Source of the DNA: a virus
Taxonomy: Duplodnaviria; Heunggongvirae; Uroviricota; Caudoviricetes
IMG/VR virus record: IMGVR_UViG_2548877009_000015
Length of the DNA: 4,143 nucleotides
Direction: 5' to 3' (one strand)
In this document: piece after piece, positions 1-4,143 of the stretch
Numbering within the stretch: position 1 is the first letter of the stretch
Layout: each line of letters begins with the position of its first letter
Made by a program: the position numbers and the translations under genes
The notes under the pieces: generated by a model
What the model was told of the DNA's origin: nothing
Seen by the model: the letters and a program-made list of their open reading frames with translations, nothing else
The model's database searches: none

Positions 1-84
1 ATCACTACCCGCAAAAATAATGACTTCTGTTTCTTTGTGTTTTATGCCGCGTGACTGCTGTTTTACGTTCGGTGCCAGTTTCAT
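1..84 (-). CDS. Hypothetical protein G, 5' partial (first 28 codons); continues beyond the window start
   Basis: ATG at 82-84 overlaps the stop of F and is preceded by AGGGG with a 6-nt spacer. My own translation is MKLAPNVKQQSRGIKHKETEVIIFAGSD with no stop before position 1. Not in the supplied ORF track. Confidence 0.4.
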   Translation of the reverse strand, partial: MKLAPNVKQQSRGIKHKETEVIIFAGSD

Positions 85-380
85 TTTTTACCCCTGAATC
101 CGTTAATCATTGTTTTCAGCTTCTGGATGTTTGCCCGTGCTCTGGCGTTGCTGGTGGGCACGTTATGCGGCGCGGTCTGTACCAGAGAAAAATCACGCCG
201 GAACTGATAAACAGGCATCACGCAATCATATTCGTAACCTTCACGGCGGTAAGTTACGCACCGTCCCGCCACGCCCTTAATCATTACCGTACCGCCGTAC
301 TGGTCGCGGTAAATATCACCGCGCGTAAATTTAGGGTGAGTGTTGCCACTGGCAGTTAAGCCAGAATATTTAAGCTTCAT
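81..380 (-). CDS. Hypothetical small protein F, 99 aa
   Basis: ATG at 378-380 with GGAG about 10 nt upstream (inside the last codons of E). TGA stop overlaps the ATG of the next ORF (ATGA at 81-84). Gly/Tyr/Arg-rich, beta-like sequence KFTRGDIYRDQYGGTVMIKGVAGRCVTYRREGYEY. Confidence 0.55.
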   Translation of the reverse strand: MKLKYSGLTASGNTHPKFTRGDIYRDQYGGTVMIKGVAGRCVTYRREGYEYDCVMPVYQFRRDFSLVQTAPHNVPTSNARARANIQKLKTMINGFRGKK

Positions 381-2198: not shown

Positions 2199-2405
2199 TT
2201 AAGCGGTCGTTCCGCGCGCTTCTTGTTCGCGTTCTTTCATCCATGCGATTACGTCTTCCTCATACCATCCGCGACGGCGCAAACCGACACGAAAACCCTG
2301 CGGGAATTCTCCGGCGTTGATCATGCTTTGCAGCGTGCTGTCTGCCTTAATGTGGATAAGTTTTTTTACTTCCTGGCGAAAGATGACTTTTTTGATTGCT
2401 TCCAT
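2199..2405 (-). CDS. alpA: AlpA-family winged-helix transcriptional regulator / excisionase-like protein, 68 aa
   Basis: Translation ...FRQEVKKLIHIKADSTLQSMINAGEFPQGFRVGLRRRGWYEEDVIAWM fits the AlpA/Vis/TorI pattern (R..EV..L....ST......G.FP......G.R..W.e.dv.aW). ATG at 2403-2405 preceded by GAGG with a 9-nt spacer. Same orientation as int. Confidence 0.8.
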   Translation of the reverse strand: MEAIKKVIFRQEVKKLIHIKADSTLQSMINAGEFPQGFRVGLRRRGWYEEDVIAWMKEREQEARGTTA

Positions 2406-2420
2406 CGTGATTTACCTCAT

Positions 2421-2512
2421 TAATCCGGTGTATTCCGGTGAGAAATACGGTAAATCATCGGATGCAGGGAAAAACAGTACTCACCGTTTTTAAACGGTAT
2501 ACACCGTTTTTT
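2421..2512 (-). promoter_or_regulatory. Promoter/operator region of the AlpA-family gene with a repeated CGGT(G/A) motif array
   Basis: Tandem 10-mers TAATCCGGTG (2421-2430) and TATTCCGGTG (2431-2440); ACGGT at 2447-2451 and 2494-2498; inverted copies CACCG at 2482-2486 and 2502-2506; hairpin-like ACCGTTT-TT-AAACGGT at 2483-2498. Lies between the int-operon terminator and the alpA ribosome-binding site. Confidence 0.45.
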
Positions 2513-2536
2513 ATATTGATGATTTGAAAGGGATTT

Positions 2537-2564
2537 ATAAAAAAAGCGGCATTTCTGCCGCTTT
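2537..2564 (-). terminator. Rho-independent terminator for the int transcript
   Basis: Minus-strand RNA reads GAAAGCGGCA-GAAA-UGCCGCUUUUUUUAU: 6-bp GC stem (2546-2551 / 2556-2561) extendable by A-U pairs, GAAA tetraloop, then U7 (plus-strand A-run 2539-2545). Confidence 0.7.
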
Positions 2565-2572
2565 CAGGATTG

Positions 2573-2803
2573 TTACCGCCATTTTTTTGGCCTGCCTCCG
2601 GTCTTCATGGATGCCGGACGTACAACCTTATCAATACTTACAGCCAGATTTCTGGAAGCCCCACGGGATACCAGGAAATCTACTACCTGTTTTTTTGATG
2701 GGGCCGTCGTTCTGTCCTCCGGATCGTAGGTTGACCAAAATTCATGCTGAACCATCAGGGCCAGTTGCAGCCCGTCGCAATTGCATCTGAAATTTGTTTG
2801 CAT
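2573..2803 (-). CDS. Hypothetical small protein, about 76 aa from the first ATG (track ORF extends to a TTG at 2824)
   Basis: ORF between the int stop and the terminator; its stop (2573-2575) lies 11 nt upstream of the terminator stem. No convincing Shine-Dalgarno before the ATG at 2801-2803, and no recognisable family. Confidence 0.3.
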   Translation of the reverse strand: MQTNFRCNCDGLQLALMVQHEFWSTYDPEDRTTAPSKKQVVDFLVSRGASRNLAVSIDKVVRPASMKTGGRPKKWR

Positions 2804-2901: not shown

Positions 2902-4143
2902 CTAAACGGCTCGGATACCCCTTTTACCACTGGCGAGGGTTACGCCCGTCGCCGCAGCCTCGACAAATTCGCCCCACCAGCGCATAAGCACGATGCGTTT
3001 TTCTATGTAGTTGCTCCGGTTGTATGCCCGTCTGACTTCGTTGGTGTCGACGTGGGCAAGTGCGGCCTCTATTACGTCTGGCTCAAAGCCTTCTTCGTTC
3101 GCTGCTGTGCTGAATATGGCGCGTAATCCATGAGACACCAGCACGCCAGCGAATCCCATGCGTCGTAATGCTGCGTTAGCGGTCTGGCTGTTCATCGGCT
3201 GCTGTGGGTCTTTCAGACTCGGGAAAACATAATCGCGGTGGTGGCTGATTGGTTTCATAGCCTCCAGCACTGCCATAGCCTGGTCACAAAGCGGGATAAC
3301 GTGGTCGCGGCGCATCTTCATGCGTCCGGCGGGTATGGTCCAGCGTTGCGCTTCCATGTCGATTTCTTCCCAGCGTGCCGACGATGCTTCAACGGGACGG
3401 GTTACGGTCAGTAACTGCCATTCAATCAGTAATCTGGTCTGCCGTTCTGTTGCCGATACTGATAAAGCCTGCATAAGCTCCGGCAGCTGTTCGGGGCGGA
3501 TTGTTGGCATATGTTTTTTTACAGGGGAGGGGAACGCCTTACGCACATTCATAGCCGGATTGGCATCAATCATCCCACTATTGGCGGCGTAATCCATTAC
3601 CTCATTTATACGCTGTAAAACTCGCTTGAGCGTTTCCAGGTTGCCACGTTCCTTGATGGGGGTAAGCACCTCAACGAACCTGCGAGCGGTCAGGGTGTCT
3701 ATTGGCGTGTTGCCGATGAACGGGAATACATATTTTTCCAGCGATCGCCAGATGTCTTTAATCGTATTGGGGGCCAGATTCTGGCTGATTTTCACCTGGT
3801 ACCATGCTGTTGCCACATTTTCGAACGTGTTCCCTTGTCTTCGGGCCTCTGTCTCTCTTTTTTGCCTCTCGTGGTCCTGCGGGTCAGTTCCGGCACGAAT
3901 TAACGCCCTGTACTCGCTACGGCGTTTTCTGGCATCAGCCAGGGAAACATCATCAAGCGATCCAAAACTCAGCAATATTCTTTTTTTGTCCGATGGTCGG
4001 TAGTAGGAAAATCTCCAGAGTTTTGATCCGGACGGTTTGATCAGGAGAAAAAGCCCTCCGCCGTCCTGTAGGGTGTATTCCTTTTCTGCTGGTCTGGCTG
4101 CTTTGATCTGTACTGTGGTTAATGGGGGTGTTTTTCTCGCCAT
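2902..4143 (-). CDS. int: Tyrosine recombinase, P4-family phage integrase, 413 aa
   Basis: 413-aa ORF starting MARKTPPLTTVQIKAARP. N-terminal arm-binding-type region (DGGGLFLLIKPSGSKLWRFSYY...SLADARKRR). C-terminal catalytic signature with Arg in TRPVEASSARWEEID, HGLR (HxxR box) and LAHVDTNEVRRAYNRSNYIEKR with the catalytic Tyr, then MRWWGEF. ATG at 4141-4143 (cat on plus), TAG stop at 2902-2904. Confidence 0.95.
   Translation of the reverse strand: MARKTPPLTTVQIKAARPAEKEYTLQDGGGLFLLIKPSGSKLWRFSYYRPSDKKRILLSFGSLDDVSLADARKRRSEYRALIRAGTDPQDHERQKRETEARRQGNTFENVATAWYQVKISQNLAPNTIKDIWRSLEKYVFPFIGNTPIDTLTARRFVEVLTPIKERGNLETLKRVLQRINEVMDYAANSGMIDANPAMNVRKAFPSPVKKHMPTIRPEQLPELMQALSVSATERQTRLLIEWQLLTVTRPVEASSARWEEIDMEAQRWTIPAGRMKMRRDHVIPLCDQAMAVLEAMKPISHHRDYVFPSLKDPQQPMNSQTANAALRRMGFAGVLVSHGLRAIFSTAANEEGFEPDVIEAALAHVDTNEVRRAYNRSNYIEKRIVLMRWWGEFVEAAATGVTLASGKRGIRAV

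Follow-up and report, generated by a model that had tools for sequence, protein, structure and literature searches.

Reading along its minus strand, the window analysed here (the whole stretch of 4,143 nucleotides) contains a gene for a tyrosine integrase (int), a small conserved gene (ORF83), an intrinsic terminator (T1), a cluster of repeats and alpA. The coordinates of these features, and of the elements into which we divide the repeat cluster, are collected in Table 1.

Table 1. Features of the int-ORF83-alpA locus, in the order in which they are met on the minus strand.
Feature	Position	Strand	Description
int	2902-4143	-	P4-type tyrosine integrase; Pfam Phage_integrase, Phage_int_M and Arm-DNA-bind_3
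ORF83	2573-2803	-	76 residues from the annotated start; 83 residues from an upstream TTG at 2824
T1	2543-2564	-	Intrinsic terminator; AAAGCGGCA-GAAA-TGCCGCTTT, then a T-run; inverted repeat I7
A/T-rich block	2511-2526	-	AATCAnCnAnATAAAAA; just upstream of D1; partly conserved; UP-element-like position
D1	2491-2510	.	Distal 20 bp dyad; AAAACGGT-GTAT-ACCGTTTA in the alpA sense; centre 2500.5
D2	2471-2490	.	Proximal 20 bp dyad; AAAACGGT-GAGT-ACTGTTTT in the alpA sense; centre 2480.5
Spacer from D2 to -10-like block	2458-2470	-	Identity 0.54; length fixed
Anti-SD arm	2449-2457	-	TGATTTACC; inverted repeat I3; complementary to GGTAAATCA at 2408-2416
Candidate -10 hexamer	2447-2452	-	TACCGT; includes the ACGGT at 2447-2451; predicted start at about 2439-2440
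Tandem boxes	2422-2438	-	CCGGAAT-ACA-CCGGATT; direct repeats 10 bp apart; core of the originally predicted 10-mers
Shine-Dalgarno (SD) and spacer	2408-2418	-	GAGG at 2415-2418; right fold-back arm at 2408-2416
alpA	2199-2405	-	68-residue winged-helix AlpA/excisionase-type regulator

The alpA product scores 17.8 bits against the Pfam family Phage_AlpA, which is under the cut-off of 21. It matches PHROG 66/2790 ('excisionase and transcriptional regulator') with an E value of 1e-7 and, in a profile comparison, PDB entry 8C3T ('AlpA family') with an E value of 6e-4; in RefSeq it is named as an AlpA family or HTH regulator. The arrangement is that of a PICI, with int at one end reading inward, alpA downstream of it and both on the minus strand. 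A tRNA-Pro gene adjoins int in the closest annotated genome, which carries a 97%-identical island. This island is about 9.7 kb long and encodes a RepA helicase, DUF4222, an Icd-like gene and a fusion of prohead protease and major capsid protein; no tail or lysis genes are annotated in it, and its replication module and small size are likewise those of a PICI. Relatives in IMG/VR are mostly contigs of 7-14 kb, with a few in contigs of 20-55 kb. The window is part of an Escherichia coli PICI-type phage satellite in which alpA is the master-switch gene.

The codon-position identities of ORF83 (0.74, 0.81 and 0.47) indicate purifying selection. The gene is found in 43 of the 44 contigs that bear the dyads D1 and D2 and in none of 16 distant lineages, a co-occurrence that is confounded by physical linkage. 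Its AF2 model (pLDDT 80) has three helices and a basic tail, GGRPKKW. It could be assigned to no Pfam, PHROG or NCBIfam family, and a structure search gave no neighbour (best Foldseek E value 2.2). An ORF83-like protein named 'AlpA family' (P0037) proved to be a deletion fusion of ORF83 to AlpA, and a C-terminal likeness to the gap ORFs of other lineages was set aside at phmmer/hmmsearch E values of at least 0.01 on eight sequences. The original prediction had placed an int terminator upstream of the repeats; a terminator is indeed present, but because the conserved ORF83 sits between int and T1 it closes an int-ORF83 unit and not int alone. T1 folds at -15.4 kcal/mol. The hairpin of the 70% clade folds at -14.3 kcal/mol with a changed sequence, its stem arms being 72% identical. 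In sister lineages the int-alpA gap is occupied by unrelated ORFs of 150-270 residues and by repeats of their own, for example four copies of AAAACTTCCA.

Composition and conservation of the repeat cluster

Six copies of a CGGT core had been described upstream of alpA, and on re-checking every position proved correct. They comprise the tandem 10-mers TAATCCGGTG and TATTCCGGTG at 2421-2440, which are 90% identical, ACGGT at 2447-2451 and 2494-2498, and CACCG at 2482-2486 and 2502-2506; as had also been noted, 2483-2498 forms the near-palindrome ACCGTTT-TT-AAACGGT. When the window was simulated 2000 times under a first-order Markov model, no simulation reached six copies of CGGTR within 92 bp (the maximum averaged 2.35), and over the whole window 20 copies against 14.3 expected represent a mild enrichment. 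A further cluster of six is found at 247-321, within a coding region, so that clustering of this 5-mer alone is not diagnostic. Among longer patterns, the 7-mer AAACRGT occurs four times in the window, each time as a half-site within 2472-2509; AAACNGT-N4-ACNGTTT has two matches against 0.02 expected and CCGGWWT-N3-CCGGWWT has one against 0.01 expected.

The region was compared with more than 60 related islands. AlpA relatives were taken from IMG/VR; a scan of genome contigs for them gave no match. Between the window and the clade at about 70%, identity is 0.47-0.61 at third codon positions and 0.54-0.59 in the flanking spacers, compared with 0.95-1.00 for D2, 0.95 for the CCGG pair, 0.88 for the -10-like block and 0.80 for D1. 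The A/T-rich block upstream of D1 shows 0.62-0.69 identity to the 70% clade, and columns A11-A15 and A21-A28 of the gap-free alignment of 20 distinct family sequences (A6) are invariant within it. A conservation check in related islands, suggested with the original prediction, is thus borne out: identity is 0.80-1.00 in the regulatory blocks and about 0.5 at neutral sites, and this excess confirms that the blocks have a function. The repeat cluster is real, non-random and strongly conserved, and it comprises at least two separate control elements before alpA. The earlier description is supported in that the region between a terminator and the ribosome-binding site of alpA is regulatory, conserved and composed of several sites.

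The distal element consists of the two abutting dyads D1 and D2, each of the form AAAAC-N-GT-N4-AC-N-GTTTT. A single 8-mer, in alternating orientation, makes up all four half-sites. The D2 half-sites are invariant in 20 of 20 distinct family sequences; those of D1 are retained, with D1 degenerate in a few islands, while the 4 nt spacer and the central N vary. Eight spacers are seen in the dyads (GTAT, TCTA, TATA, GAGT, GGGT, GGAT, GGGA and TGGT). In one lineage (L020) D1 is deleted and a 20 bp palindrome persists alone. Inverted half-sites that are invariant or nearly so, around an unconstrained spacer, are what a dimeric operator would present. The spacer between D2 and TACCGT, which leads to a promoter that is itself predicted, contains no insertion or deletion in the 20 distinct sequences despite its variable sequence.

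The double dyad was found in 46 IMG/VR contigs, and all 44 full-length loci encode the AlpA and integrase of the family. In every locus inspected it is present as a single copy 70-100 bp upstream of alpA. It is confined to relatives with an AlpA identity of at least 65%, and the 40 bp double operator is present in 374 of 5426 complete E. coli genomes (about 7%), including Nissle 1917 and ATCC 25922, in both of which the region is 92% identical. A BLAST search of the 97 bp region against 50,697 GenBank phages returned one insignificant match, a search that short degenerate operators would escape; as no operator-bearing phage was found, no helper protein could be tied to the operator. Among the matches listed for the single-dyad pattern in IMG/VR, most were low-GC environmental contigs at about chance level. 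By inspection, consensus sites for LexA, CRP, IHF, CpxR and P2 Ogr do not fit, and we know of no E. coli regulator that matches the half-site AAAAC-N-GT.

The proximal element, the pair of CCGG boxes, has a wider distribution. It is retained 6-8 nt before the Shine-Dalgarno sequence in lineages of 41-53% AlpA identity, in which the upstream sequence is otherwise unrelated, and down to 41% it accompanies AlpA proteins of the MINAGEFP-type subfamily, more remote AlpA proteins having other words. In L013 the 10-mer is present in three copies; L169 has CGGWAW boxes 10 bp apart without self-complementarity, and in L169, L171 and L175 the AlpA proteins are similar and the boxes only partial. Upstream of alpA of the CP4-57 and EcCIEDL933 types the words differ (AACCAA and ACAAT) and the 10 bp phased layout before the Shine-Dalgarno sequence is the same. 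Sites of the form CCGG-WWT-N3-CCGG elsewhere in the islands were considered as further AlpA boxes and proved to be ordinary terminators with a 7 bp stem (AGCCGGA/TCCGGCT).

These observations bear on whether the copies form one array of equivalent CGGT sites, as was first supposed. A single protein (AlpA, the RHH protein or a host factor) might read a core ACCG(T/G)-WWT and fill all six or seven copies; seven 8-mers within 92 bp of the window do fit AC(C/T)G(T/G)WWT, and the box centres are phased at about 10 bp. However, the copies fall into two classes under different constraints, with different invariant positions and rules of orientation. The distal boxes, found in one lineage only, are arranged as dyads and combine A-C-n-G-T, free at its centre, with a T-tract, whereas the proximal boxes are direct repeats of n-C-C-G-G-W-W-T. 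Their phylogenetic ranges also differ, the CCGG pair reaching down to 41% AlpA identity and the dyads extending only to 65%, and over the wider range the T that makes the proximal boxes 'CGGT' is not conserved. The RHH protein, moreover, is encoded in only 14 of the 44 islands with the distal operator, which makes it unlikely as an obligatory partner. We consider a single array very improbable and treat the two classes as separate elements.

Candidate promoter, operators and leader

A consensus scan of the alpA strand gave no sigma-70 consensus promoter, and the D1/D2 region has no -35 element. The candidate -10 hexamer TACCGT is invariant in the family. In all ten CCGG-bearing lineages a hexamer of the form nAnnnT ends 8-10 nt before the first CCGG, with an extended -10 TG in four; this regularity of position was noticed after the fact. 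Taken singly these hexamers are weak, scoring no better than 16-47% of background windows, and that of the window has a score of 2.8, which 16-25% of background windows equal.

In our view the elements are best read jointly as an alpA promoter that depends on an activator and has two dimer operators, AlpA-type boxes at the start and a fold-back that silences read-through, a reading that we judge to have about an even chance of being correct. D1 and D2 would be operators of the same type for a dimeric regulator, the 8 bp half-sites AAAAC-N-GT being inverted around a free 4 bp spacer. With a start at about 2439-2440 the dyad centres would fall at about -61.5 (D1) and -41.5 (D2), D2 covering the place of the -35 element, so that an activator bound there could replace the -35 contact; D1 appears to be an auxiliary, helper site. 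Because the alpA promoter of related satellites needs a helper signal as well as AlpA, D1/D2 is the best candidate for the site of a lineage-specific input, which might come from a helper-encoded or helper-controlled factor, from ORF83 or from AlpA itself. Of the binders first proposed, a helper or other factor is plausible for these distal dyads, and AlpA chiefly for the tandem boxes of the proximal element.

CCGGWWT-N3-CCGGWWT, located where the transcript is predicted to start, would be a distinct, family-wide element, most likely a set of head-to-tail AlpA boxes serving autoregulation. We read the pair in this way because winged-helix proteins of the Xis/AlpA type bind tandem direct repeats, and CCGGAAT/CCGGATT has the spacing of about 10 bp that is typical of such sites. 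CCGG is also self-complementary, and the pair would make a small hairpin with a 4 bp stem where the mRNA is predicted to begin. We note that +2 to +18 is an odd location for such boxes if AlpA activates its own gene, as it is reported to do in other PICIs.

The opposite sign of regulation would follow from a different start. An alternative -10 hexamer, TACTGT at 2474-2479, would place the dyads over the core promoter in the layout of a repressor operator, with a start at about 2465 and dyad centres at about -14 and -34. ORF83, made together with int, would then keep alpA off until a helper inactivates it, as happens with Stl of the staphylococcal islands, which is inactivated by helper phage and sets helper specificity; the whole fold-back would belong to the normal leader. 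The key A and T positions of this hexamer (TACTGT or AACTGT) are retained in all family members, and a start near 2465 would put the strongly predicted leader hairpin in every transcript. The co-occurrence of ORF83 with the operator (43 of 44 against 0 of 16), its purifying selection and its modelled helical fold with a basic tail could all suit a repressor, but linkage alone explains the co-occurrence and ORF83 belongs to no recognisable DNA-binding family or fold. Furthermore, there is no -35 element at either spacing, the 92% clade has AACTGT, and in other lineages the likely -10 hexamer adjoins the CCGG pair, which argues against this layout. PalpA has been described as needing activation, with no repressor known (PMC6092414). 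We regard repression through D1/D2 as distinctly unlikely. Much the same doubt attaches to an extended proposal in which the int-alpA stretch is a swappable sensor cassette, represented here by ORF83 and D1/D2, and ORF83 is a master repressor or sensor that holds PalpA until a helper protein removes it, thereby setting helper specificity.

The -10-like TACCGT overlaps an arm able to pair with the ribosome-binding site in longer transcripts. With the start at about 2439-2440, transcripts from upstream, for instance by read-through from int-ORF83, would fold back and bury the Shine-Dalgarno sequence and start codon, whereas those from the proper start would keep both free. The predicted fold of the long leader in the window (-26.5 kcal/mol, z -5.2) is more stable than chance, with none of 200 shuffles as stable, and includes the Shine-Dalgarno sequence; the short leader leaves it open. 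One compensatory pair is seen in the family (UA in 12, AU in seven and a mismatch in one, L041), which is probably one evolutionary event. Across nine independent lineages the fold energy is significant in three and pairing of the Shine-Dalgarno sequence is not above shuffled controls (Fisher p 0.26); the idea of a family-wide sequestering leader was downgraded after this control. There is no Rfam 15 match in 2400-2530, and all three matches in the window are far below threshold.

D1 and D2 might themselves act as RNA, forming a long hairpin of A-tract, stem and U-tract (H1 with H4 and H2 with H3) that would follow T1 as a further terminator or insulator, possibly in both directions, and, together with the fold-back, bar int-ORF83 read-through from alpA. 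In every clade its predicted energy lies between -15 and -17 kcal/mol, similar to that of T1; it is flanked by A5-6 and T5, a scan flagged terminator-like sub-hairpins there, of 7 bp only, on both strands, and the z value of -5.25 for the fold of the full intergenic RNA counts towards such a reading. Its arms pair in 98.9% of cells, the sole variable paired position toggling from G-U to A-U, but no double compensatory change occurs and the score equals that of shuffles; D1 as a hairpin of its own has its central pair broken in 14 of 20 sequences. It is the sequence and not merely the pairing that is conserved (half-sites 0.94 identical against 0.72 for the T1 stem arms), and the stem is AU-rich, with the U-tract itself inside it. 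A hairpin would also leave unexplained the same 8-mer in four arms, the lone 20 bp palindrome of L020 and the fixed distance to the -10 block. Two operators require four identical half-sites in alternating orientation and a single hairpin does not, and this symmetry therefore favours operators. We consider a role as RNA unlikely and retain D1 and D2 as putative operators.

Significance and comparison with known systems

Gram-negative phage-inducible islands, which carry genes for virulence and defence from one enterobacterium to another, have AlpA as their master switch. Neither the phage signal that turns alpA on nor its target DNA is identified in the literature searched, in which we also found no published description of the elements reported here or of the operators, start site or leader of any PalpA. 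The present analysis supplies a 40 bp double operator, a tandem box shared across the family at the predicted start of transcription and a predicted fold-back. D1-D2 could serve as bait for the factor, inducer or repressor, that switches such satellites on, and the lineage-variable int-alpA cassette may mark where helper specificity is encoded. Should the elements prove to be an autoregulatory site and a second terminator, the outcome would be routine annotation.

In PICIs of the EcCICFT073, EcCIMP1 and EcCIEDL933 types PalpA is induced by the helper and autoactivated by AlpA (PMC6092414), and it remains helper-induced without alpA (PMC11773190), which indicates that two inputs exist. Helper-phage induction and transfer are known for other islands (PMC6092414; bioRxiv 10.1101/2022.09.08.507074). 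As AlpA in related islands activates the entire satellite cycle (PMC6092414), the original view of the cluster as controlling excision is too narrow. The present island resembles the Gram-negative PICIs in being small and tRNA-linked, with a capsid-type gene and with int followed by alpA in the same direction and then by replication genes. The EcCIEDL933 type differs in having another AlpA allele, another module than int-ORF83-alpA and ACAAT-type repeats. CpxR, considered as a regulator from the EcCIMP1 paper, served there only as a control.

The late promoter of P4, PLL, has no good -35 element and is activated from an upstream dyad by P2 Ogr or P4 Delta, and Vis, the AlpA homologue of P4, binds near its own promoter and is reported to be a negative autoregulator. 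PLL is likewise a satellite promoter directly before an AlpA-family gene (vis), with a poor -35 element and an upstream dyad. P4, however, has a single TGT-N12-ACA dyad at about -55 for zinc-finger activators, whereas the window has two 20 bp dyads, unrelated in sequence and with predicted centres at about -41.5 and -61.5; by inspection TGT-N12-ACA is absent. The P4 late promoter and the alpA homologue are among the subjects discussed in PMC10111431.

Small winged-helix proteins of the Xis/AlpA/Vis group recognise two or three imperfect direct repeats spaced by about 10 bp, on which they assemble cooperatively in head-to-tail order (PMC2603039). The CCGGAAT-N3-CCGGATT pair, possibly together with ACCGTAT 12 bp upstream, shares this layout with the sites of lambda Xis, Gifsy-1 Xis and TorI. 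Those sites, in contrast, lie in attP/attR arms and serve recombination, and the boxes here are about 1.7 kb from the att-proximal end of int, at a predicted promoter and leader. Pseudomonas aeruginosa AlpA is a much longer, Q-like protein (contacts to residue 142) that places an N-terminal ring in the RNA exit channel, and its ABE is a single GGGACG between -35 and -10 (PMC7969949, PMC9371919). It shares with the present system the name and a promoter-proximal DNA element read by 'AlpA'; the 68-residue protein here is only a winged helix, and no GGGACG is present. The different protein architecture and element rule out an antitermination model of this type.

In IS10-type fold-back, the ribosome-binding site is paired with a sequence that lies immediately before the genuine start, so that translation is silenced only in transcripts from outside. 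The contrast between long and short leaders here would be of the same kind, a likeness that rests on the predicted start and has mixed support among lineages. At class II/I activator promoters, such as those of the CRP type and PRM with lambda CI, a dimer site at -41.5 overlaps an absent -35 element and a second site lies two turns upstream. The geometry of D1 and D2 and their strict spacing from the -10 hexamer would match this arrangement, given a start that is itself only predicted.

The island and its int-alpA region

The genes and control elements identified in the window are listed in the table. E. coli NCCP 13963 carries an island 97% identical to that of the window beside tRNA-Pro. It spans about 9.7 kb and also encodes Icd-like and DUF4222 proteins, a RepA helicase and a fused prohead protease/major capsid protein; its site, size and gene content identify the island as a PICI-type phage satellite. 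Of 5426 complete E. coli genomes, 374 contain the 801-bp int-alpA region, falling into tiers of roughly 99, 92 and 70% identity; it is carried by no GenBank phage.

Features of the window around alpA
Feature	Position	Strand or remark
P4-type integrase	2902-4143	minus
ORF83, small conserved ORF	2573-2803/2824	minus
T1, strong terminator hairpin	2543-2564	after ORF83
A/T block, partly conserved	2526-2511	alpA orientation, after the terminator
D1 and D2, abutting 20-bp palindromes	2510-2491, 2490-2471	AAAAC-N-GT-N4-AC-N-GTTTT
Variable spacer, 13 nt		between D2 and the invariant block
Invariant block TGATTTACCGTATTT		includes ACGGT at 2447-2451
CCGG pair, CCGGAAT-ACA-CCGGATT	2438-2422	core of the tandem 10-mers of the original prediction
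SD (GAGG)	2418-2415
alpA ATG	2405
alpA, 68-aa AlpA/excisionase-type winged-helix gene	2199-2405	minus

Two further features of the island were noted. ORFs 815-1132 and 621-842, separated by nine consecutive C (845-853), correspond respectively to the first and second halves of a single PHROG family (phrog_2512, positions 1-77 and 78-145 of 154); the NCCP 13963 homologue is annotated as frameshifted, and the split is due either to a frameshift in the homopolymer, which may be phase-variable, or to an error in sequencing. The plus strand at 1484-1560, immediately upstream of the start of the oppositely oriented Icd-like gene, contains a GC-rich hairpin with a T-run behind it (GAAGCCCGG...CCGGGCTTTGCTTTTTT) and gives weak sub-threshold Rfam matches (symR, 26.8 bits versus 61). 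The hairpin may terminate antisense transcription or belong to a small RNA associated with Icd.

Two classes of box upstream of alpA

The original prediction placed a multi-site regulatory region upstream of alpA. Its coordinates for the CGGT-core copies are all correct, and the region does contain conserved elements at fixed distances, but these do not form the single array of CGGT sites that was proposed. Six CGGTR motifs within 92 bp were reached in none of 2000 simulations; however, an equally dense cluster of six lies at 247-321, inside the DUF4222 gene (81-380, minus strand), and the 5-mer statistic alone is therefore weak. (The DUF4222 homologue in Sakai is annotated rgdR, 'prophage regulator RgdR'.) Two longer patterns describe the region far more strongly: AAACNGT-N4-ACNGTTT, with two matches against 0.02 expected, and CCGGWWT-N3-CCGGWWT, with one against 0.01. 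The near-palindrome ACCGTTT-TT-AAACGGT noted earlier is the D1/D2 junction.

The two classes differ in constraint, orientation and lineage range. The distal boxes (D1 and D2) are inverted and retain A-C-n-G-T and the T-tract, whatever the central base and the 4-nt spacer; they are restricted to islands with an AlpA identity to the window of 65% or more. The proximal boxes (the CCGG pair) are direct repeats retaining n-C-C-G-G-W-W-T. At least seven other lineages, in which AlpA is 41-53% identical and the upstream DNA otherwise unrelated, have them 6-8 nt ahead of the SD. The exact double dyad D1-D2 matches 46 IMG/VR contigs, and all 44 available as full-length loci encode the family AlpA and integrase. 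It occurs once per island (16 sequences checked for position), and in upstream regions lies 70-100 bp before alpA. The lineages with 41-53% AlpA identity have other upstream repeats where the dyads would be, such as four copies of AAAACTTCCA in locus L067; among L067/L175, L062, L064, L069 and L071 the direct repeats comprise AAAACTTCCA (four copies), ACTTCCA, CTACCAACA (two copies) and TTACC about every 21 bp.

Conservation was assessed in 63 related IMG/VR loci and seven E. coli genomes. Identity to the 70% clade is 0.95-1.00 for D2, 0.95 for the CCGG pair, 0.88 for the -10-like block and 0.80 for D1, where changes are restricted to the spacer and central N; the values are 0.47-0.61 at third codon positions, about 0.59 in the terminator flank and 0.54 in the variable spacer. 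Twenty distinct family sequences align without gaps across 135 columns, and distances are thus conserved even where the sequence varies. Repeat copy number does vary: one locus (L013, about 1560-1625) has three copies of the 10-mer CACCGGAATA, and a single 20-bp unit replaces two in two loci and in further single-unit loci, including L020 (about 1640-1726) and L209. Such variants would be usable as natural mutants.

Protein operators or RNA structure

A live rival explanation is that D1-D2 acts as RNA, its four half-site arms (H1-H4) pairing as H1:H4 and H2:H3 in one long hairpin. In this arrangement 98.9% of cells pair and the predicted stability, -15 to -17 kcal/mol, equals that of the genuine terminator, but there are no compensatory changes and the score is the same as that of shuffles. 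If D1 and D2 are folded as two hairpins, the D1 central pair is broken in 14 of the 20 sequences without compensation. Since conservation lies in the sequence itself, beyond pairing alone, since all four arms are one 8-mer, for which a hairpin has no need, and since the distance to the -10 block is fixed, we prefer to read D1 and D2 as two putative dimer operators.

As CCGG is self-complementary, the proximal direct repeat doubles as a 4-bp stem. A WWT is conserved behind each CCGG, L169 has partial boxes with 10-bp phasing but without self-complementarity, and remote AlpA genes have non-palindromic words; all three point to putative tandem boxes for a protein, of the kind known for Xis/AlpA (PMC2603039). 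CCGG pairs at other places in the islands were considered as further boxes and rejected as ordinary terminators.

The arm TGATTTACC (2457-2449) is complementary to GGTAAATCA (2416-2408). A leader from an upstream start is predicted to fold with -26.5 kcal/mol (z -5.2; none of 200 shuffles as stable), with the SD, spacer and some of the AUG buried, while one from 2440 would form only a small CCGG hairpin and leave the SD free. Within the family, the sole variable position of the left arm covaries with that of the right (UA 12, AU 7, one mismatch). All 13 CCGG-bearing leaders folded singly (about 8-9 independent lineages) have similar architecture, but when only the upstream block was shuffled stability was significant in three of nine lineages, with no excess SD pairing over these shuffles in the nine. 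We therefore regard the fold-back as likely in the lineage of the window and as no more than possible for the family as a whole.

Candidate binders, predicted promoter geometry and known alpA systems

The Arc-like RHH protein, one of the binders originally suggested, is unlikely to be an obligatory partner of the distal dyads, its gene (1622-1816) being present in only 14 of 44 operator-bearing contigs. Directly upstream of that gene are two copies of AGGTGTACAC, each containing the palindrome GTGTACAC, at 1577-1586 and 1612-1621 (35 bp apart); the second ends one base before the ATG (1622). The RHH protein probably autoregulates its gene through this pair as an operator, which is separate from the repeats at alpA.

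The double-dyad operator travels with Int, ORF83 and AlpA, and stays fixed while the Icd-like and DUF4222 genes diverge to 34-40% identity. In distant lineages with integrases 68-82% identical, ORF83 is found in 0 of 16 and the operator in none; their int-alpA gaps hold unrelated ORFs of 150-270 aa. Among these gap ORFs, L064, L069 and L071 share one related group and L062 and L067 another. We found no phage copy of the operator among the IMG/VR matches listed or in a BLAST search of the 97-bp region against 50,697 GenBank phages. The codon-position pattern shows ORF83 to be a real gene. It is under purifying selection and confined to E. coli/Shigella islands of the window's lineage. Its core, EFWSTYDPED, is invariant, and it is predicted to form three helices plus the basic tail GGRPKKW (pLDDT 80), with no family or fold match. 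In the 90-aa database protein P0037, named as 'AlpA family', the N-terminus of ORF83 is joined in frame to the C-terminus of AlpA, reflecting deletion of the whole control region; its public record is labelled Cooperia oncophora and looks like bacterial contamination of a nematode assembly.

No consensus sigma-70 promoter was found on the alpA strand, as an activation-dependent alpA promoter (PalpA) would predict. The best candidate -10 is the invariant TACCGT (2452-2447). An nAnnnT hexamer, individually unremarkable, ends 8-10 nt before the first CCGG in every CCGG-bearing lineage, with an extended -10 TG in four. If transcription starts at the predicted 2439-2440, the dyad centres (2480.5 and 2500.5) lie at -41.5 and -61.5, with D2 over the missing -35. 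Alternatively, TACTGT inside D2 would be the -10, which would place the dyads over the core promoter. On the plus strand, a promoter-like TTTAAA-N17-TATATT (9/12) at 2489-2517 overlaps D1 and faces T1, away from alpA; its -10 is kept in the 92-100% clades (TATATT/TATGTT), but the 70% clade, with TATCTC, does not keep it. The site may be the promoter of a short antisense transcript or a chance match (1.6 expected).

In our view, the best model, whose start site and binders are all inferred, treats the sequence controlling alpA as composite and not one array: two dimer operators would occupy activator positions, AlpA-type tandem boxes would lie at the predicted transcript start, and the fold-back would act against read-through transcripts. 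We found no description of PalpA operators, start site or inducer in the literature to 2026. In EcCICFT073, both helper phages and AlpA activate PalpA, the inducer being 'under study' in 2018 (PMC6092414). In EcCIMP1 helper induction persists without alpA (PMC11773190), so PalpA has two inputs.

In an O157:H7 EcCIEDL933-type island (L269; repeats at 6215-6275 and 5985-6015), the int stop is followed at once by nAACAAnnnn, repeated five times with 10-bp phasing, and the alpA SD is closely preceded by three repeats of ACAAT type, in the style of the proximal boxes but with a different word. The layout of candidate -10, proximal boxes and SD recurs, with other words, at CP4-57 alpA (TAATCT, 6 nt, AACCAA-agtg-AACCAA, SD) and EcCIEDL933-type alpA (CACTCT, 6 nt, AACAAT..ACAAT..). 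In the P. aeruginosa AlpA/ABE system both the protein and the element differ from those of the window.
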